DNA of 64,000 nucleotides, from sequence record MH791411.1; one strand, given 5' to 3'. Every line of letters begins with the position of its first letter. Within the stretch, counting starts at the first letter, position 1. Under the pieces are notes generated by a model that saw only the letters and a program-made list of their open reading frames with translations, made no database searches and was not told the DNA's origin. Below are positions 2,808-31,813 of this stretch, piece by piece. The position numbers were made by a program, and so were the translations under genes. Source of the DNA: Escherichia phage Ecwhy_1.

Positions 2808-3587
2808 ATGTTTACATATGTAAAAGGTAGTTCTAAAGAAAATTATGAATTGGGTAACATCATCTCCAACCCAGTTGGTGTTAAGGGTTTAAAAGAACGC
2901 CCTGGGGCAACTCCAGATGATGAACAAACATATCGTTATTTGTACAGTGATATCCGTGCACTTTATGGTATTTCAAGTAAAGATGGTTCTGAAATTGAAC
3001 CTAATAACGCTGTTCGCAAAGAAGAGGGTTTCTGGTGGTTGGAATATAAGAATGTTGGTAATGTGAACGCAATTAATGAGAATTTGGAATATATTAAACT
3101 ACAAGATAGTAATCAACCAGTCATCACATTCTTAGAAGAAGCAGAAGGTGAATATAAAGAGTTAACAGTACTGAAAACTTATAATTATGTTGATATGGAC
3201 ATTGCAGCAGTTAAATCTGATCTGAAAGCACGCACAGTATCATCTCGTAGTGATCGTATTAATGCTGGTTATATGTTTAACGGTCATCGTTATAGTACTG
3301 ATCTAGCTGGTCGTCAAATGCTTCTTAATTATTATACACAAGTAACTTCCGGTTCTGATAGCGTTTCGATTTTCCTTGATGACGCAATTGTAAAACTATC
3401 TGCTGCTGAAATGACTCAACTATACACTGAAGCATTTGCTATGGTTGAATCCCTATTTGCAGAGTGTAATAAGCAATGTGCTGACATTGATGCAGTTCCT
3501 GATGCTGATGAAGATGCAATTTATAAAGCACAACAGGCGGCTGTATGGGTATATGAAGGTATTGATATTCCTGAGCGTATTCGTTAA
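2808..3587 (+). CDS. hypothetical protein, possibly a fibre accessory/assembly protein
   Basis: 259-aa ORF with gaggt RBS upstream of the ATG, sitting between two fibre genes; no motif I can name with certainty. Confidence 0.5.
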   Translation: MFTYVKGSSKENYELGNIISNPVGVKGLKERPGATPDDEQTYRYLYSDIRALYGISSKDGSEIEPNNAVRKEEGFWWLEYKNVGNVNAINENLEYIKLQDSNQPVITFLEEAEGEYKELTVLKTYNYVDMDIAAVKSDLKARTVSSRSDRINAGYMFNGHRYSTDLAGRQMLLNYYTQVTSGSDSVSIFLDDAIVKLSAAEMTQLYTEAFAMVESLFAECNKQCADIDAVPDADEDAIYKAQQAAVWVYEGIDIPERIR

Positions 3588-3593
3588 TTTATA

Positions 3594-3632
3594 TTTTTTT
3601 AAAGGTCAACTATGGTTGGCCTTTTCTTTTAT
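3594..3632 (+). terminator. rho-independent terminator
   Basis: Stem aaaggtcaac/gttggccttt (one mismatch) at 3601-3624 followed by a T-rich tract tcttttatc. Confidence 0.55.
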
Positions 3633-3678
3633 CTAAAATAAATACTTAATATATAATCTATTCTGAGGAAATATTTAA

Positions 3679-5643
3679 ATGAGTATAAATCGAATTAGAG
3701 GTGATGGTGGTGTAATTATAGATAGTCAGGCATTTCTAGAATTACCTAAAGCACCGACTAAAGAAACCGCTGATGTGGTTAGATCAGGGATGATTAGATA
3801 CAATAAAGGATGGAAAGCATTTGAAGGTGTACTAGACTTTGAAGATGGTTCAATGGCATATCGACGTTTTGCAAACCTAGATGCAAACGGTAAACTTCTT
3901 ACTTCCCAATTACCAGATTCAGTAACTAGTGGTTTACAATTTGTTGGTACATATAATCCCATCCCAGATGATATCGATCCACCTTTAGCACAAACTCCAC
4001 TACCAGCACCATCACCATCGCTTAATGGTGATTATTATGTCGTTCGTGGTATAATGGATGCCGCACAAGCACATTATGAAGCAAATAATCCACAAACAAG
4101 TCCTGTTACATTTACACCTACAAATCCAACTGGACAAGGTAATTGGATTGAAATTTTATATTATGTTGACTCTAATCCAAATATATCTGGTGCTAAACTA
4201 GTAACATACGCTTTTGCTAGAATTATTACTGCATCTATTCCCAGTACTGGACATGATGGCCTTGAAAATTTAGCAACAGATACTGACTTGACCAAACCAT
4301 TTGCATCTGGTGTTCCAATGAACCAAACTGCACTTTCAGATGGTGATTGGATTATTATAACTGAAGATAAGAATATACGTCTTCGTCAGTCAAGAACAAG
4401 CATTTCCGCTGCTTCAGTATTATATGACAATACTGTAATGATTGCAAATCATCGCCAATTTAGAACAAACGCAGGGACCGTTCAAACATCCATAGATAAC
4501 GTTGTGATTGAGTGTTTACGTAGAACTGGCGATTCCATGTATAATGATGGAACAGACGGCTCTGGGCGTTTTGGGGTGGTGTATGGCAGTGCAGCAGCAC
4601 CAGCATTGACATTTAATAATAATCCGTTTGACCCAACGAACAACCCAGGTAATGACCCAACTAAGTGGTCCGATGCTAATACTGGTATATTCCATCCAGC
4701 AGATGATGCAATTGGTTTTACAACAGCCGGAACTGAGCGTGTTAGAATTAATAATGGAACATTAACATTATTCCAAACTACCGCTACACCAGCAGCTACG
4801 CCAGTAATACGTTTTGATAATGCATCAAACACAAACGTAGGGATAAGTGCAAGTAGTAATATTATTTCTTTAAGTTCAATGAATAAAGTTCAAGTTGAAT
4901 TTAAAAATGGTGAATCACATTTTCATGGAAATATTATTGTAGATGGATCAACATCACTAACTGGTGATTTAAACGCAGGTAACATCACTGCCAGCGGGAA
5001 TTTAGTTGTTAAAGGTAATACAACACTAGGCGACACTACTGGTGACACTATTACAGTTAATGGTGTTAGTACTTATAATGCAAATACTAATTTCAATGGA
5101 ACTAATAACAAATTCAAAAACATAAACTTACTAGAGAATGGTGTATTCACATTAGAAAGTACTACAAACCAAAGTGATATAAAACTACTTGGTGCAGACT
5201 TACGTTTCACTATGGGAAGTTATGCTGATGTAAGTATATATGATAACGGTGTTATTCGTACTCGTTTCAACCGATATGGTATTCAATTACCAGTACTGGC
5301 TACAATTGATAACTCAGTTGGTGTTGATGGTATGATTGCATACTCAAATACCGAACGTACATCGATGCAGAAGGTCCAAGGACAATGGGTTCCAATTGGT
5401 TCTGGTTCTGTACGTACTGACCCGTTTACTGCGTCAGCGTGGGTTTTAAACGGCTCATATTACACATTAACAGTAACTGCTAGTAACATAGTAACTGCTG
5501 AAATTCAAGAACTCGTAAGTACTGGTGTTTACACTCGTGTTGAAGTTGATAGTGTTACATTCAATGGAACAAGCGTAGTGTTCAGTATTCCTGCAACTCC
5601 TGATGTGAGATTTGCCGGACGTACACTGGTTACATTAAGATAA
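3679..5643 (+). CDS. tail fibre protein
   Basis: 654 aa; N-terminus (GMIRYNKGWKAFEG) is the type commonly seen at tail-fibre N-termini, followed by Asn/Thr/Gly-rich beta-type sequence; GAGGAAA RBS. Confidence 0.65.
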   Translation: MSINRIRGDGGVIIDSQAFLELPKAPTKETADVVRSGMIRYNKGWKAFEGVLDFEDGSMAYRRFANLDANGKLLTSQLPDSVTSGLQFVGTYNPIPDDIDPPLAQTPLPAPSPSLNGDYYVVRGIMDAAQAHYEANNPQTSPVTFTPTNPTGQGNWIEILYYVDSNPNISGAKLVTYAFARIITASIPSTGHDGLENLATDTDLTKPFASGVPMNQTALSDGDWIIITEDKNIRLRQSRTSISAASVLYDNTVMIANHRQFRTNAGTVQTSIDNVVIECLRRTGDSMYNDGTDGSGRFGVVYGSAAAPALTFNNNPFDPTNNPGNDPTKWSDANTGIFHPADDAIGFTTAGTERVRINNGTLTLFQTTATPAATPVIRFDNASNTNVGISASSNIISLSSMNKVQVEFKNGESHFHGNIIVDGSTSLTGDLNAGNITASGNLVVKGNTTLGDTTGDTITVNGVSTYNANTNFNGTNNKFKNINLLENGVFTLESTTNQSDIKLLGADLRFTMGSYADVSIYDNGVIRTRFNRYGIQLPVLATIDNSVGVDGMIAYSNTERTSMQKVQGQWVPIGSGSVRTDPFTASAWVLNGSYYTLTVTASNIVTAEIQELVSTGVYTRVEVDSVTFNGTSVVFSIPATPDVRFAGRTLVTLR

Positions 5644-26168: not shown

Positions 26169-26411
26169 TTATTTAGGGTTGCTCGAAACCTCTACTGAAG
26201 CGATGAATGCCAAAATATCATCTTTACTGAAAGCTTCAATAATATAAGCAACCGCTTTATCGTACTGTTCTTTCTTAGTAGTGTATTCTTTCATTTTGTG
26301 AATTTTACGTTGTGCTTTAACTTTTGCAGCTTCCATATCAGGCATTTTAAATTCAACACCCAATGTGTCAGCTAAATGTTTTGCACGAGATGATACTTTA
26401 TCAATATTCAT
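26169..26411 (-). CDS. hypothetical small protein
   Basis: 80-aa ORF. Confidence 0.45.
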   Translation of the reverse strand: MNIDKVSSRAKHLADTLGVEFKMPDMEAAKVKAQRKIHKMKEYTTKKEQYDKAVAYIIEAFSKDDILAFIASVEVSSNPK

Positions 26412-26659
26412 TAATTCCAGCGACCTTCTTTAAGACCTTCAACGAAACCAGTACAGCCACCTGGAACGTAAACATCGTTTACGAAAATTTGTGGAACCTG
26501 TCGTACTGGCTCACCACATAGTTCAGATAGTTTAGCACCATCAATACCAGCGGTAACAATATCGATAAACTCCATATCAAATTTGTTATTTTCACATACT
26601 GCTTTAGCAGTGTCGCAGAATTTACAACCAGTAGTGCGACCATAAATTTTAACTTTCAT
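26411..26659 (-). CDS. glutaredoxin/thioredoxin-like protein (NrdC-like)
   Basis: 82 aa; CxxC active site (GCKFC) near the N-terminus and a C-terminal GG motif, typical small glutaredoxin layout. Confidence 0.7.
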   Translation of the reverse strand: MKVKIYGRTTGCKFCDTAKAVCENNKFDMEFIDIVTAGIDGAKLSELCGEPVRQVPQIFVNDVYVPGGCTGFVEGLKEGRWN

Positions 26660-27059
26660 TTCTTTTCCCTTTATTTCGTTGAAACATTGTAACAGCCTTT
26701 ATTATACTGTTACACATTCGTTCAGTCAAATACTTTTGACAATCTAGTACATCAATGTACATGAACTTATCCAATTCTGGGTGACTTCTACCATATCTGT
26801 TTGTGTAAGTACTTTTACACTCCAACTCTTCTGGTATAGGCTTATCTTTGGCTGTATAGAAAAATAAAACTAAACGTTTCCCCTTTCTATACGATACATC
26901 ACCAAGAAACAGAAGATCATCTTCATCGATTTCATATCCTGTCTCTTCGTAGCATTCACGTACAGCAGCCTCTTTAAATGTTTCTGTACCTTCAGTTTTA
27001 CCTTTAGGTAAGTCCCAGTGATTCTGTCCGTGTTGTATGCCCGATAAGTATCTGACCAT
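26649..27059 (-). CDS. Nudix hydrolase
   Basis: Complete Nudix box GKTEGTETFKEAAVRECYEETGY (Gx5Ex7REUxEExGU); track start 27062 is GTG, ATG at 27059. Confidence 0.75.
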   Translation of the reverse strand: MVRYLSGIQHGQNHWDLPKGKTEGTETFKEAAVRECYEETGYEIDEDDLLFLGDVSYRKGKRLVLFFYTAKDKPIPEELECKSTYTNRYGRSHPELDKFMYIDVLDCQKYLTERMCNSIIKAVTMFQRNKGKRNES

Positions 27060-27168
27060 CACGATAAAATATTATACCACAGCTATAACGCATAATCTTA
27101 TCTCTTTATCATCAAGTGATGTTCAGATACTAGTAATTATATCAGAAGATGTTAACTTGTCCCAGCTT

Positions 27169-28284
27169 TTAGAACATTTGCTTGATTGCTTCAATACGCA
27201 ATTCAGCAACAAAATCACGAATCTCCGATGTTTGGAGTTCACCATCTTTCACTAACTGCTGAATATCAGGTAATTCAACATCAGTATAACGATCATAAAC
27301 TTTAATAATCAAATCTTCAAGTTCAGAATCAATTTCTTTGTTCAAAATGAAGTTTTCCAGTACTTTGTAAAGGAAATCTTCACCACCATTGTTTTTGATA
27401 TTCATATCCAGTAAGATTTGTCCCATTTCAACTGGGGTCTTCTTACGGAAGGTTTTAATATCTTCACGGAAACGCTTGATGTAATTACTAAACTTAACGT
27501 ACTTAACTGGAACCTTAATGGAACCGTTAAGTACTGAATCATTATTTACTTCTTCATTTTCAAGAAGTACTGTCCATAAGAAATATGGTTTATATTCTTC
27601 TGTACAATTTGCAGCGATAGAATCAATTAATTCCAGACGTTTCTTGGTAACTGGAACTGTAGTAAATGCCTTTTCGTAATAACCAAATTGTACCAGAGTT
27701 TTGATAAACTTGGAAGGGTTTTCTTCAGAAAGTGCTTTTTCGAATTCAACAAAAACACGATCTGGAACTAGATGGTCTAGTTCACCAGTACTAACCATAT
27801 CTTTACACATTGTCATAGTATCATCATGGATTGTAAAGTCGGAGTAACGCGTAGCGAAACGGGCCAAACGTAGAACACGCAATGGATCTTCTTTAAAGTG
27901 TTCTGATACATGACGAAGTACTTTGTTCTTGATATCAGCTTTCCCGCCATAAGGGTCGATGTGAATCTGGAGTACTGGATCATATGCAATACTATTGATT
28001 GTGAGATCACGACGATATAGATCTTGTTCTAGTGTCACACCTTTTGTATTCACTTCGAAGCCACCATATCCAGTACCAGTTTTACGCTCAGTACGGGCTA
28101 ATGCGTGTTCATTACCTTCTGGACTTAGATATACAGGGAAATCCTTACCTACTTGCTTGTATCCAATACTTTGCAAGTATTTAATATCGGATTCGGTAGC
28201 ACCGACAATAACATAATCTTTGTCTTTTGCACGGATACCCATTAAACGGTCACGAACGTAGCCACCAACCAAATACTTTTTCAT
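27169..28284 (-). CDS. tRNA nucleotidyltransferase (CCA-adding enzyme / poly(A) polymerase family)
   Basis: 371 aa; N-terminal GGYVRDRLMG and DKDYVIVGAT match the class II CCA-adding/PAP head domain. Confidence 0.7.
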   Translation of the reverse strand: MKKYLVGGYVRDRLMGIRAKDKDYVIVGATESDIKYLQSIGYKQVGKDFPVYLSPEGNEHALARTERKTGTGYGGFEVNTKGVTLEQDLYRRDLTINSIAYDPVLQIHIDPYGGKADIKNKVLRHVSEHFKEDPLRVLRLARFATRYSDFTIHDDTMTMCKDMVSTGELDHLVPDRVFVEFEKALSEENPSKFIKTLVQFGYYEKAFTTVPVTKKRLELIDSIAANCTEEYKPYFLWTVLLENEEVNNDSVLNGSIKVPVKYVKFSNYIKRFREDIKTFRKKTPVEMGQILLDMNIKNNGGEDFLYKVLENFILNKEIDSELEDLIIKVYDRYTDVELPDIQQLVKDGELQTSEIRDFVAELRIEAIKQMF

Positions 28285-28285
28285 A

Positions 28286-28408
28286 TCATTCCCCCATCAA
28301 CCAATCACGTAGACGTTCCCAGAAGCCTTTTGGCTGATATTCTGGATATTCATATTCATCTGTTCCTTGCTCGGAAACACCCCAATCTTCTTCTAATACT
28401 GTAATCAC
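28286..28408 (-). CDS. conserved micro-ORF, copy A (about 40 aa, ends DWLMGE)
   Basis: GTG start with GGAGG RBS; stop TGA one nt before the CCA-enzyme ATG; paralogue of copy B at both nucleotide and protein level. Confidence 0.4.
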   Translation of the reverse strand: MITVLEEDWGVSEQGTDEYEYPEYQPKGFWERLRDWLMGE

Positions 28409-28419
28409 AATGCCTCCAA

Positions 28420-28857
28420 TTAAATTAATCTATCACGTAGACGGTCGTAATATTTTGCATGTATATCTAGTATACACTGAAATGATGGATAGTCAATACT
28501 AAATGTATCATCAATGAACATGTACTGAAGAAGTGTTTCTGGTCCATTATCAACAACTGGTAATGTCCCTTCTTTTTTTGATAGGGTGTGCCACATCAAC
28601 TCACTTTCAATATGGTGAGTTGCGTATGTCAATTCAATCTTACTTTTTCGTAGTAAAATTAACAATTCATCATTGTCATCGAGTGCATTACGAAATTTAA
28701 TACGAACTGTACCCTGGAAATTATTAGTGTACATAACACGATGATGATTGTATGAAATTAAACCACGTCTTTCAGTACTGATTTCATGTTCAGCAAAGTA
28801 CTTTAACGTTTCATTAAATTTTGGAATTTTACTTGCGTCCACCAATGTAATCCTCAT
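28420..28857 (-). CDS. hypothetical protein, member of a tandem paralogue pair
   Basis: C-terminal LLQYMFIDDTFSIDY parallels YLQYQFIDDTFGFDF in the neighbouring gene; start 28857 or 28863 uncertain. Confidence 0.5.
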   Translation of the reverse strand: MRITLVDASKIPKFNETLKYFAEHEISTERRGLISYNHHRVMYTNNFQGTVRIKFRNALDDNDELLILLRKSKIELTYATHHIESELMWHTLSKKEGTLPVVDNGPETLLQYMFIDDTFSIDYPSFQCILDIHAKYYDRLRDRLI

Positions 28858-29236
28858 ATACATGATATACGTTCATTATACTATTATATAGTTCAAAGTC
28901 AAATCCAAATGTGTCATCAATGAACTGGTATTGCAGATATTCTTCATATGAAGCATCAATTGGTAATGATCCAGCACGAATATCATCTGATTTAAAATCG
29001 TCAATGTATCTTAATGTTATGTCTTCATCAACAGTAATATCTATCATCAACGTATCGTCACTGTACCAAAGGTTATGTATACGGATGTAAAGTTTCTTAG
29101 CACGATTAAAACTAGATACATTGGTATTGCGATGGAGTTTATCTAAGTTGAAGTAAAAACCAGGCTCGTTTTTACTTATGTTTTTCATATGTTCTGCAAT
29201 CGAATCAATTATATAATCAATGTTGAATGTTCTCAT
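28829..29236 (-). CDS. hypothetical protein, member of a tandem paralogue pair
   Basis: Paralogue of 28420..28857; the ATG at 29236 overlaps the upstream stop (ATGA); track start 29242 is TTG. Confidence 0.5.
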   Translation of the reverse strand: MRTFNIDYIIDSIAEHMKNISKNEPGFYFNLDKLHRNTNVSSFNRAKKLYIRIHNLWYSDDTLMIDITVDEDITLRYIDDFKSDDIRAGSLPIDASYEEYLQYQFIDDTFGFDFELYNSIMNVYHVYEDYIGGRK

Positions 29237-29418
29237 AAACAAATCTCATAGCGGTTTGTGTTTGGATTGTAGCAATAGGTATCATTAATTTTAACACCAG
29301 GTTTAAGTGTTATTGTTGTTCCTACTTCAGTACTGGGTTCTGCATCACAATAAATCATCACACCAACGCCACAGATTAAAGCTAAGATACAAATAATAGC
29401 ACATATTGTATATTCCAT
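29233..29418 (-). CDS. small membrane protein
   Basis: 61 aa from the ATG at 29418; N-terminal hydrophobic helix ICAIICILALICGVGVMIY; start overlaps the stop of micro-ORF B (TGATG). Confidence 0.45.
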   Translation of the reverse strand: MEYTICAIICILALICGVGVMIYCDAEPSTEVGTTITLKPGVKINDTYCYNPNTNRYEICL

Positions 29419-29543
29419 CACTCCCCCATCAGCCAATCAAAGAGACGTTCCAAGAAGCCATTAGGCTTGTATTCTGGTTCTTTGTTCACGTCGGTTTCTT
29501 GTTCATAAACACCCAAATCTTCTTCAAGTATAATTGTATTCAT
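29418..29543 (-). CDS. conserved micro-ORF, copy B (41 aa, ends DWLMGE)
   Basis: ATG start; protein MNTIILEEDLGVYEQETDVNKEPEYKPNGFLERLFDWLMGE parallels copy A; stop overlaps the next start. Confidence 0.45.
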   Translation of the reverse strand: MNTIILEEDLGVYEQETDVNKEPEYKPNGFLERLFDWLMGE

Positions 29544-29926
29544 TATATATTATACTCTATTATACCATCATCACTTTCACCAGACAACCACTTAATGTAA
29601 TTTACTTTGTAGAAATTAATCAATGCATAAGTGCTGTACTCAATCAACAAGTGATCTCTCAAGAATTCGTCTTGAGCATATCCATCTTCATCCAAATCTG
29701 TTGGAATATCAGTTTCTTTGTCTTGAATGTGTAAAGTTATTGTGTCTTTTGTTATACAAATTGTTATATGATTACAAATAGTAATGATGATTATGCTATA
29801 TGTTCTATTGAAATATATTGTGAAATCTTCATTAATATTATATCTTCGACTTTCTTCATATTTCTGATATGGGTCGAAATGTGATAAATTAACTTTAATT
29901 AATGTATTTCTCAACTTACACCTCAA
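29543..29926 (-). CDS. hypothetical protein
   Basis: 127-aa ORF; start codon uncertain. Confidence 0.35.
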   Translation of the reverse strand: MRCKLRNTLIKVNLSHFDPYQKYEESRRYNINEDFTIYFNRTYSIIIITICNHITICITKDTITLHIQDKETDIPTDLDEDGYAQDEFLRDHLLIEYSTYALINFYKVNYIKWLSGESDDGIIEYNI

Positions 29927-30307
29927 TCATATAAAGTAATTATACATTTTATTGTACAATATAAAAAGGTCTTTAACATTATCATAAGTAATATCAGATA
30001 CATCATGAATTAATGATAACTGGAAAAATGATGCTTCGTCTATCTCTACTGGGATTATAACATCATAGTCTTCGTCAATTTTATGGGTGTAGTATTTTAT
30101 GTGATCAGCATTCAACACAAGGTTGTATTTTGTATCATCTTCAATTAATCCGACAAATTGAGATTTTTGATTAATAAAAAATCCAATCCCAACACAACGG
30201 TTATCTGGATATGGATAGTACCATCTATTAATAACTAGGTGTTCAGGTAAGTCCATATCATGTGTTGATATTAAAGATTTTACAATTCCCATCCAGGAAT
30301 AATTCAT
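29927..30307 (-). CDS. hypothetical protein
   Basis: 126-aa ORF with ATG start. Confidence 0.45.
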   Translation of the reverse strand: MNYSWMGIVKSLISTHDMDLPEHLVINRWYYPYPDNRCVGIGFFINQKSQFVGLIEDDTKYNLVLNADHIKYYTHKIDEDYDVIIPVEIDEASFFQLSLIHDVSDITYDNVKDLFILYNKMYNYFI

Positions 30308-30321
30308 AATTAAAACTCCAT

Positions 30322-30350
30322 AAGAAAAGGGACAGAATAATCTCTGTCCC
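30322..30350 (-). terminator. rho-independent terminator downstream of the hpf-like gene
   Basis: Hairpin gggacag-aataatct-ctgtccc (30329-30350); on the minus strand followed by ttttctt. Confidence 0.65.
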
Positions 30351-30361
30351 TTTATTATATC

Positions 30362-30694
30362 TTACTCTTCGTCTTCAGTCAAGTCTTCTTGAACTGGATG
30401 TTCGGGGTGGTTACGGCGATGCAATTTGATGCTTTTGTCTTTACCTAAGACAGTTTCCATTTTTTCAAATGAATCACCAATTGCTTTGTATAAATCTGCA
30501 TCATCGGCGGTGACAATCTTACCACCTGATGTTAAAGTTACGGAATATTGATTCTTATGCTCTTTCTTCACATGAACACCGATATAAAGTACTGAAGAAT
30601 CACTAAACTTCGTTAGTGCATTTGCTTCTGCATGAATCGCGTCATTGATTGCTGGAGTAATATCAACATTACCTTGGATAACTAAATCTAGCAT
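30362..30694 (-). CDS. hpf: ribosome hibernation promoting factor / RaiA-family protein
   Basis: 110 aa; aligns along its length with E. coli HPF as I recall it (ITG-N-V-ITxA near the N-terminus, a G-x-I-xA-x-DxYxAIDxxxxKL core, Lys-rich tail). Confidence 0.7.
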   Translation of the reverse strand: MLDLVIQGNVDITPAINDAIHAEANALTKFSDSSVLYIGVHVKKEHKNQYSVTLTSGGKIVTADDADLYKAIGDSFEKMETVLGKDKSIKLHRRNHPEHPVQEDLTEDEE

Positions 30695-30719
30695 AATTTA
30701 CCTACCTTTTTTTTTAGTT

Positions 30720-31646
30720 TTAAAGATTACTAACTAACAATTCTGCACGGTTTCCTACTTGACGATACCATAGAGAATTCTTAATTTCTTTTTTGAACTT
30801 GTTATTATTTTGATTATCAACGCTTTTCCATAATTTATTGAAAGTATTTAACTTATCAACTCCTAATGTAAATGCCATCTCAAATAAAATTCGTTGTTGT
30901 TCAGCCGTAAGGTTTGTTGCATTTCTTTTCTTCAATAATAAAACTAAATCATTATTAGTTCGTTCCATGTCAGACAATAAAAGTTTATGTGCTTGTGACT
31001 TCGTAATACCATTACGATACTTACTTGCATCTGATTCTTTCTTTCCAAGATAATGTCCGTACCCAATAGTGAAGTTACCTTTTATATCACGATACGGATA
31101 AAATTTAGAATTTCGATATGGAACTCCAACTTTCCCACCAAGTAAACGTCGTTTGTTCTTGGACTGAAATTCAATAGAACCTTCAGCTTCTTTGATGTGA
31201 TTGACAATTTCTGGATCTTTATAATCAAACAGTACAGTCACATCTGGTAACAATACGTGCTTCAAATCCTCTTTTGTTGGGATAAAGATACCCTGAGAAG
31301 TATGAAGAGTTGCATTTAAGTTGATGTTCTTCAACAAAATGACATAATCTTCAATCTGTACATTTTTAGGTTTAAATTTCTGTGCAATAGAATAATAACT
31401 ATCACCAGGTTGAACCGTATAATGTTTCTCGCTGCTTGGAACTGCTTTTGGTACTGACACCTGTGGTAGTTCCTGCTTTTGAATTTGCGTAACTTGTGGT
31501 TTTAAATTATGCACCTGACTTTCGTCTAATGATGATGCACGATCACTTTGAGAAAAACCATAAAATCCAATCGCAGCGAATAGGGCTGATGAAACTAATA
31601 CGCCTACGGCAATTTTAGTTTTCAGTTCTTTTTTCGCTTTTTTCAA
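30720..31646 (-). CDS. endolysin: N-terminal TM/signal-anchor + LysM + T4-lysozyme-like (GH24) domain
   Basis: Hydrophobic segment KIAVGVLVSSALFAAIGFYGF; LysM (YTVQPGDSYYSIAQKF); lysozyme motifs GNFTIGYGH, RILFEMAFTLG, SLWYRQVGNRAELL. No in-frame ATG near the 5' end; probable TTG start at 31646 preceded by AAAGGAGG. Confidence 0.8.
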   Translation of the reverse strand: MKKAKKELKTKIAVGVLVSSALFAAIGFYGFSQSDRASSLDESQVHNLKPQVTQIQKQELPQVSVPKAVPSSEKHYTVQPGDSYYSIAQKFKPKNVQIEDYVILLKNINLNATLHTSQGIFIPTKEDLKHVLLPDVTVLFDYKDPEIVNHIKEAEGSIEFQSKNKRRLLGGKVGVPYRNSKFYPYRDIKGNFTIGYGHYLGKKESDASKYRNGITKSQAHKLLLSDMERTNNDLVLLLKKRNATNLTAEQQRILFEMAFTLGVDKLNTFNKLWKSVDNQNNNKFKKEIKNSLWYRQVGNRAELLVSNL

Positions 31647-31813
31647 AACGCCTCCTTTGTTGGTTGTTAACAATGAGCAATCACAAAGAGGGCAAAGAGG
31701 CCATTTGCAAAAGCCTCATTGGACTTTCTACAGTACTCAGTTGTTCTTTGGAACATTTAAGTAGTATAGCATACTTTTTAGTTATATCAAGACCTATTTA
31801 CCAAATAACCACA

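Follow-up and report, generated by a model that had tools for sequence, protein, structure and literature searches.

Two short related open reading frames (ORFs), micro-ORF A and micro-ORF B (Table 1), were studied in a 64,000-nucleotide stretch of Escherichia phage Ecwhy_1 (sequence record MH791411.1; hereafter, the window), where A is followed by the gene of a CCA-adding tRNA nucleotidyltransferase (CCA enzyme) and B by the gene of a small membrane protein. Both frames belong to the microprotein gene family PHROG 34272, and probably A is functional and B imported and drifting; their product would be a peptide acting in trans, and the tight junctions with the following genes are ordinary ones. 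The feature as such is already annotated and already assigned to a family, and what is new here is the acquisition of a cassette followed by neutral drift of B.

The peptide encoded by micro-ORF A was MITVLEEDWGVSEQGTDEYEYPEYQPKGFWERLRDWLMGE, and that encoded by micro-ORF B was MNTIILEEDLGVYEQETDVNKEPEYKPNGFLERLFDWLMGE. In a codon-aware alignment of the two ORFs, 91 of 123 nt (74%) and 25 of 39 amino acid residues were identical, and in a tblastn search against the six-frame translation of the window the peptides found each other with E = 1.3e-13 and 67.6% identity over 37 aa. A third copy was detected with neither peptide in the 64 kb of the window, and in phage records no more than two places per record were matched (tblastn), with the exception of phage CMSTMSU with four, which originate from a poor assembly marked as UNVERIFIED. 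The likeness between A and B at the DNA level was confined to the ORFs, and their flanks did not align. The TGA stop codon of A was followed by 1 nt and then by the ATG of the CCA enzyme gene; the TGA of B and the start codon of the gene for the 61-aa membrane protein overlapped by one base (TGATG), and the ATG of B itself overlapped the TAA of the upstream 123-aa ORF (TAATG). An earlier sequence-only reading of the window had described two related micro-ORFs at these positions, approximately 70% identical, located 0–1 nt from the next gene and separated by paralogous genes of about 135–145 aa. All of this was confirmed, with an identity of 74%, lengths of 40 aa (A) and 41 aa (B), a 1-nt gap (A) and a 1-nt overlap (B), and intervening paralogs of 135 and 140 aa (BLASTP E = 1.6e-8, both phrog_20693). 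Its remark that neither micro-ORF was in the list of ORFs was correct, but this was an artefact of the length threshold: both were listed at 25 aa, and both are annotated coding sequences in Escherichia phage Turkey3.

The GGAGG sequence ahead of A was kept in all Asteriusvirus copies compared. Both micro-ORFs terminated in the invariant ATGGGGGA(A/G), and GGGGGA(G) was located 5–6 nt upstream of both downstream starts. So far as can be read from the letters, the CCA gene is likely to have its ribosome-binding site in the GGGGGA at the end of A, and the membrane protein gene in the GGGGGAG at the end of B; the most plausible reading of the terminal ATGGGGGA(A/G) is that the following gene has its ribosome-binding site within the coding sequence of the micro-ORF.

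The region surrounding the micro-ORFs was 99.4% identical to that of phage Turkey3 and 83–97% identical to those of other Asteriusvirus-type jumbo coliphages (121Q, PBECO4). In Turkey3, both ORFs were annotated as 'hypothetical protein' (XMR01183.1 for A and XMR01179.1 for the second copy), and gp538 of phage 121Q corresponded to copy A. The PHROG 34272 profile was matched by A with E = 3.2e-31 (residues 1–40 on profile positions 1–40) and by B with E = 3.5e-16 (residues 5–41 on positions 4–40). According to a tblastn search of 50,697 phage records, copy A was present in about 35 Asteriusvirus-type genomes with an identity of 82–98%. Distant homologues were those of Xanthomonas phage XaC1 (46 aa), Erwinia phage Hallingskeid (39 aa) and the group of phages Munch, 7t3, SE_PL, PHA46 and fENko-Kae01 (47 aa), and a 49-aa version of the family was found on an IMG/VR contig. 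An exhaustive profile search of 1.84 billion representative proteins gave 8 matches, including 2 repetitive false positives and 1 frameshifted record, and all the remaining matches were standalone proteins of 38–49 aa; the true relatives numbered only about 6. Peptide matches in T5-like phages at E ~9 were treated as chance. In the literature library searched, no paper mentioned these ORFs and none joined Asteriusvirus with the CCA enzyme.

Alignment of the family members revealed an N-terminal motif, M-I-x-(V/M)-L-E-E-(D/N)-W-G-V-(S/T/N)-(D/E), a middle linker that was variable in length and sequence yet acidic and aromatic throughout, and a C-terminal amphipathic helix, (F/W/Y)-x-(D/E)-(R/K)-(L/I)-x-(D/E/K)-(W/F/L)-(L/I), with the net charge of the members ranging from -6.5 to -9.5. 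Copy A contained both motifs; copy B read LEEDLGVY and FLERLFDWL, with Trp gone from each. The AlphaFold2 model of the peptide alone had a predicted local distance difference test score (pLDDT) of 61, which was too low for a fold search, and contained only the C-terminal helix. The family was located in the lysozyme/HPF...CCA–Nudix–glutaredoxin block of several distant jumbo phages, and on every contig long enough to tell, its gene lay no more than ~1.3 kb upstream of the CCA gene. In phages RaK2, GAP32 and fHe-Yen9-04, the CCA orthologs of which had an identity of 58–67% and belonged to the same block, no family member was found within 2.5 kb of the CCA ortholog in a permissive six-frame profile scan. 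It should be noted that in GAP32 and fHe-Yen9-04, which are without the micro-ORF, the products of the genes immediately before the CCA gene (1907–2498 of the examined locus of GAP32 and 2124–2504 of that of fHe-Yen9-04) ended in SFW(G/Y)xLIxxDIL and contained M(F/Y)(D/E)EY(F/M)G, which loosely resembled the two family motifs in the same order, with weak statistics. GAP32 gp185, GAP32 gp184 and fHe-Yen9-04 g182 are not claimed as distant homologues (hhalign E = 0.056, probability 1%); their comparison with the family in shuffles was weak (p = 0.011, 0.54 and 0.065, respectively).

Within Asteriusvirus, the ratio of nonsynonymous to synonymous substitution rates (omega) among orthologs of A was 0.03–0.24 (Nei–Gojobori), and three independent pairs of orthologs contained 12 nonsynonymous and 22 synonymous differences (p = 4e-9 against neutrality). 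Between A and the B type that is present as a single copy in phages Turkey5 and JNE01, the synonymous distance (dS) was 1.3–1.8, i.e., saturated, and the nonsynonymous distance (dN) was 0.09. The distant homologues kept the motifs, and the differences in their length resulted from in-frame insertions and deletions (indels) only. Purifying selection was found along the whole peptide, and conservation was strongest at residues 4–13. In Salmonella phage SD-15_S21, A and the membrane gene were intact, though the upstream 135- and 140-aa genes were mostly deleted; ~100 nt of the 3' end of the 140-aa gene was left in such Salmonella-infecting Asteriusvirus relatives (positions 2876–3000 of the examined locus in SD-15_S21).

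Frame-breaking versions occurred only in phage CMSTMSU (MH494197), the UNVERIFIED record of which has fragmented neighbouring genes too, and these breaks are sequencing errors. A broken frame in conserved DNA, which the sequence-only reading had named as a sign of an RNA-level element, was therefore not found for A outside this error-ridden record. The frameshifts of CMSTMSU (e.g., a G lost from a GGGGG run) fused each micro-ORF to the next gene, the CCA gene was split into three coding sequences, and one artefact fusion (P0005, 65 aa) is the representative of a cluster in a large protein database.

At least four layouts of the block were distinguished among the Asteriusvirus genomes. In phages 121Q, JP4, G17, SP27 and UE-S1, the order was the 126-aa gene, membrane gene, 136-aa gene, 140-aa gene, micro-ORF A and CCA gene, whereas Turkey5 and JNE01 carried the B type only, in the order of the 130-aa gene, 123-aa gene, micro-ORF, membrane gene and CCA gene. 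Both sets were combined in the window and in Turkey3, fEgEco12, EC.P1, WPEC5 and ph0011, and in A4 and TH47 micro-ORF A was separated from the CCA gene by a 355-aa gene. Compared with 121Q, the window contained a precise insertion of ~0.5 kb, which was exactly the 123-aa gene and micro-ORF B; the 123-aa gene was missing from 121Q, JP4, G17, SP27, UE-S1, A4 and TH47. The identity of the window to Turkey5/JNE01 was 94% for the 123-aa gene and 89–90% for micro-ORF B, compared with 73–80% for the flanks (HPF, 126-aa, membrane and CCA genes); it was 84–85% for the Nudix gene and 98% for the lysozyme gene of JNE01. The excess of identity in these two genes over the flanks, together with the precise insertion, argues that B is the micro-ORF of another, Turkey5/JNE01-type lineage, imported with the 123-aa gene as one cassette, and not a local duplication. 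A recent tandem duplication in situ was ruled out as the origin of the cassette that the sequence-only reading had called duplicated, since B was nearer to the Turkey5/JNE01 copy than to A (74%) and dS between the two types was 1.3–1.8; the genes upstream of A and of B were not close paralogs.

To polarise the changes in B, A and the B type of the single-copy phages served as outgroups. In the lineage with both copies, B had accumulated 12 derived nonsynonymous and 3 derived synonymous changes; five of the former were shared, three, among them W9L and W30L, were of the window type, and four, two of which are nonsense codons, were found only in ph0011. The ratio of 12:3 fits neutrality (p = 0.75) and differed from that of A (Fisher p = 0.005; p = 0.04 if the changes specific to ph0011 are left out). 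The single-copy B type had the ancestral residue at all derived positions of B, with Trp intact, and the two changed Trp positions were conserved in all other members of the family, save that at the second there were swaps for aromatic or hydrophobic residues. In the window, an AT-rich sequence stood in place of the GGAG located before B in Turkey5. In ph0011, B read MNTIMLEED*GVY*QE..., with one of its two stops at the changed Trp codon, and the downstream 61-aa membrane ORF was intact. Judged by these substitutions, B is redundant and under relaxed or neutral evolution, and in ph0011 it is a pseudogene. The claim of the sequence-only reading that the peptide is under selection was thus upheld for A and the family, in which omega was low and the changes were in frame, and not for B.

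The selected product would be the peptide itself and not the act of its translation. Expressed from an operon with a ribosome-hibernation factor and the CCA-adding (tRNA-repair) enzyme, the microprotein would bind a partner in trans and fold on it. B, once redundant, has been drifting and has lost two Trp residues and its own ribosome-binding site. A trans-acting peptide is preferred because A has a strong ribosome-binding site of its own, selection extends over the whole peptide, two motifs are joined by an acidic linker, and the peptide alone has little structure. The constant vicinity of the HPF and CCA genes points to the sphere of translation or tRNA repair. CCA enzymes of jumbo phages are viewed as a tRNA-repair counter-defence (PMC7824862). 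An accessory modulator is likelier than a dedicated subunit of the CCA enzyme because relatives with the same CCA enzyme lack the gene.

Several points weigh against this interpretation. Searches of Pfam, NCBIfam, PADLOC and PDB sequences with the peptides were empty or at chance level; both peptides are predicted ones, and folding on binding is suggested by disorder in an AlphaFold2 model of low confidence. RaK2, GAP32 and fHe-Yen9-04 lack the family gene, and its function is accordingly dispensable in relatives. Moreover, among the six phages with both copies, five (Turkey3, fEgEco12, EC.P1, WPEC5 and the window) had an intact B with the same protein sequence and differed in it by 1–2 synonymous changes only; the substitutions are few, so B may have altered its function instead of decaying. 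That B is a diverged paralog with a new partner, retained as useful, would agree with this identity and with the fact that B is still acidic and retains most of the C-terminal helix. It is nevertheless unlikely, given that the ratio of changes fits neutrality, both changed Trp positions are otherwise conserved apart from the swaps mentioned, the GGAG upstream of B is gone in the window, and B of ph0011 is broken twice, with one of the breaks at a changed Trp codon; as the genomes of the five intact copies are very closely related, their identity has little weight.

Whether the micro-ORFs act in cis, as a leader peptide or upstream ORF that sets the expression of the gene behind it and, once duplicated, drives two unrelated genes, was considered in view of the junctions, which comprise a stop and a start 1 nt apart (A) or overlapping by 1 nt (B), and of the G-rich ribosome-binding site of the next gene, which lies in the MGE codons, with nearly invariant nucleotides within Asteriusvirus. 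This explanation, which was that of the sequence-only reading, is improbable. The best conserved part is the N-terminal LEEDWGVS at residues 4–13, and not the 3' end; the strongest conservation lies 27–36 residues from the stop, at a distance varying between members of 38–49 aa, and the peptide is therefore unlike a ribosome-arrest peptide. The MGE tail was not found outside Asteriusvirus, where the junctions vary between an overlap of 4 nt (ATGA) and, in Munch, a spacer of 11 nt accompanied by a separate GGAG. A search of relatives for micro-ORFs in front of other genes, which the sequence-only reading had suggested, revealed five kinds of downstream neighbours, namely, the CCA gene in most lineages, the membrane gene (B type), the 355-aa zinc-finger gene (A4, TH47), a paralog-family gene (Hallingskeid and the contigs L024–L027) and an unrelated gene (contig L030). 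In 121Q there is no micro-ORF between the 126-aa gene and the adjoining membrane gene, which carries a GGAG of its own, and the membrane gene remains intact behind the broken B of ph0011; likewise, CCA orthologs exist without a micro-ORF in RaK2, GAP32 and fHe-Yen9-04. In 50 kb of Turkey3 around the locus, 22 of 74 same-strand junctions (30%) were within 1 nt and 29 of 74 within 3 nt, and no structure that would sequester a ribosome-binding site and no alternative structure was seen at the micro-ORFs (z = -1.3 and -0.05). Junctions of 0–1 nt and G-rich last codons serving as ribosome-binding sites are the normal packing of this genome; some passive termination–reinitiation at these junctions is likely, but it is not the selected feature. 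Fusion of the micro-ORF with the CCA enzyme by programmed frameshifting was also rejected, the frame offset being +1 here and +2 in XaC1, Munch and the contig L007.

It is highly improbable that the conserved unit is a nucleic-acid element, either a structured RNA or a recombination linker for gene shuffling, with the reading frame incidental. The boundary of the cassette does coincide with the 3' end of the micro-ORF, and the end of the 140-aa gene (YYDRLRDRLI, last 8 codons, positions 28424–28446) was identical in 19 of 23 nt, in the same frame, to the helix codons of A (WERLRDWLMGE, 28296–28318), the peptide match scoring above 997 of 1000 shuffles; this likeness could be a recombination scar or a common tail motif. 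However, A and the single-copy B type have retained the protein in spite of saturation at synonymous sites, distant homologues have protein motifs but not DNA in common and differ by in-frame indels, each genome has two copies only, and frames are broken only in CMSTMSU with its fragmented neighbours. A structured RNA was rejected: no Rfam match at E ≤1 was found in positions 27000–31000, and the folding energies were the same as those of shuffles (z = -1.29 and -0.05).

Another explanation is that the microprotein is a dedicated partner of the CCA enzyme, i.e., a small subunit, a chaperone or a tRNA-mimicking regulator. The gene immediately precedes the CCA gene in Asteriusvirus, XaC1, the Munch group and three metagenomic lineages and is within 1–3 genes of it elsewhere, its product has the strong acidity expected of an occupant of an RNA-binding surface, and the counter-defence role ascribed to jumbo-phage CCA enzymes (PMC7824862) would fit. 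This is rather unlikely, as the CCA orthologs of RaK2, GAP32 and fHe-Yen9-04 (58–67%) have no family member within 2.5 kb and the adjacency is interrupted by membrane, zinc-finger or paralog-family genes in several lineages. A broader and equally tentative proposal is that the microprotein belongs to a tRNA-repair/translation-maintenance module of jumbo phages, for example, as an acidic RNA-mimicking peptide docking through its C-terminal helix, where the dock could be the CCA-adding enzyme, a host tRNA-targeting nuclease or a ribosome factor. If this were true, the tails of the 140-aa protein, GAP32 gp185 and fHe-Yen9-04 g182 would be variants of the same docking helix.

The coordinates of the micro-ORFs and of the neighbouring genes are presented in Table 1.

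Table 1. Micro-ORFs A and B, their ribosome-binding sequences and the neighbouring genes in the window
Feature	Position, nt	Strand	Remarks
Micro-ORF A, 40-aa acidic microprotein gene	28286..28408	-	GTG start; ORF; phrog_34272; annotated in Turkey3/121Q
Micro-ORF B, 41-aa second copy	29418..29543	-	ATG start; phrog_34272
Shine–Dalgarno GGAGG of micro-ORF A	28413..28417	-	4 nt before GTG; read from sequence
GGGGGA in last codons (Gly-Glu) of A	28290..28295	-	5 nt before CCA ATG; read from sequence
GGGGGAG in last codons of B	29421..29427	-	Read from sequence
CCA-adding tRNA nucleotidyltransferase gene	27169..28284	-	Pfam PolyA_pol, PolyA_pol_RNAbd; phrog_2244
140-aa paralog-family gene	28420..28842	-	phrog_20693; upstream of A
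135-aa paralog-family gene	28829..29236	-	phrog_20693
61-aa small membrane protein gene	29233..29418	-	phrog_4189; downstream of B
123-aa gene	29543..29914	-	TTG start; upstream of B
126-aa paralog-family gene	29927..30307	-	phrog_36582; first after terminator-like hairpin
HPF gene	30362..30694	-	Pfam Ribosomal_S30AE

The minus strand was the coding strand for every gene in this part of the window, and the order of transcription was the HPF gene, a terminator-like hairpin, the 126-aa gene, the 123-aa gene, micro-ORF B, the membrane gene, the 135-aa gene, the 140-aa gene, micro-ORF A and the CCA, Nudix and glutaredoxin genes. Positions 26411–31673 thus hold a translation/RNA-maintenance cluster of HPF/RaiA, the CCA-adding enzyme, a Nudix hydrolase (annotated as mRNA decapping-type) and glutaredoxin, and according to the annotation of Turkey3 a peptidyl-tRNA hydrolase gene is located further downstream. 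The 126-, 123-, 135- and 140-aa genes form one divergent superfamily with the motif (T/S)EEEFFQxS(L/T)xxD, which also takes in Munch gp217/218 and Hallingskeid CDS0472-0478; the 126-aa protein was modelled by AlphaFold2 with a pLDDT of 85. The proposal that the micro-ORF might be a fragment of this EEEFFQxSxLxD paralog family, or a C-terminal module of it, was rejected (hhalign probability 0.3%).

The hairpin between the HPF and 126-aa genes (30326–30353) is an 11-bp palindromic GC-rich structure annotated as a terminator in G17 and UE-S1, and a near-consensus TTGACT-17-TATAAT (30382..30354, minus strand) directly upstream abuts it. Matches resembling a sigma-70 promoter were at chance level (28 observed versus 28.3 expected), and a sigma-70 promoter or terminator role for the micro-ORFs was rejected, such matches being no commoner than chance. 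The 106-nt spacer between the CCA and Nudix genes contained a 16-nt inverted repeat (27047–27062 and 27116–27131) with 94% complementarity and 53 nt between the arms, which extends to the Nudix start and may be a regulatory or terminator structure. The 355-aa gene of A4 (3133–4200 of the examined locus) and TH47, the insertion point of which lies exactly at the junction of micro-ORF A with the CCA gene, encoded a treble-clef zinc-finger domain (Pfam DUF4379, E = 2e-7), and its C-terminal ...DFYL...IEYDGKQHF... recalls restriction-endonuclease-like homing enzymes; judging by these sequences, it is possibly a mobile endonuclease gene.

The look-alike pair of mini-genes is thus a catalogued small phage gene accompanied by a redundant copy imported through recombination, and not a new regulatory device. 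It provides an example of mosaic exchange mimicking duplication and of fast drift in a redundant gene of 40 codons. The practical value is modest, and the family is a reasonable, low-priority candidate for a microprotein modulating tRNA repair or translation in infection; the residual interest lies in a conserved 40-aa acidic protein that accompanies a phage CCA-adding enzyme.

Among known systems, the nearest is PHROG 34272 itself, a family of 40 positions to which no function is assigned. Copy A is similar to it in length, motifs and genomic block, with no difference, whereas copy B is without the Trp of LEEDWGVS and the second Trp, that of the helix, and precedes the membrane gene rather than the CCA gene. 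Leader peptides and regulatory upstream ORFs include trpL-type attenuators and the arrest peptides TnaC, SecM and ErmCL; the micro-ORFs resemble them as short ORFs ending at the start of the next gene and differ from them in N-terminal and whole-peptide conservation, a variable linker, a downstream gene that is not fixed and has a likely ribosome-binding site of its own, and no alternative RNA structures seen. Small regulatory proteins of ≤50 aa that bind a larger protein, such as T4 Stp and MgtS, AcrZ and SgrT of E. coli, are similar in being encoded by standalone genes of this size with their own ribosome-binding site, whole-length conservation and little structure in isolation. In sequence they are unrelated to the PHROG 34272 peptide, and the characterised proteins of this kind are mostly membrane-associated or basic, whereas the PHROG 34272 peptide is soluble and very acidic. 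The phage acidic nucleic-acid mimics Ocr and Arn are folded proteins of 90–120 aa with defined mimic surfaces; they share with the micro-ORF product the dense Asp/Glu residues mixed with aromatic ones, whereas the micro-ORF product has 40 residues, is predicted to be mostly disordered and has no homology to them.

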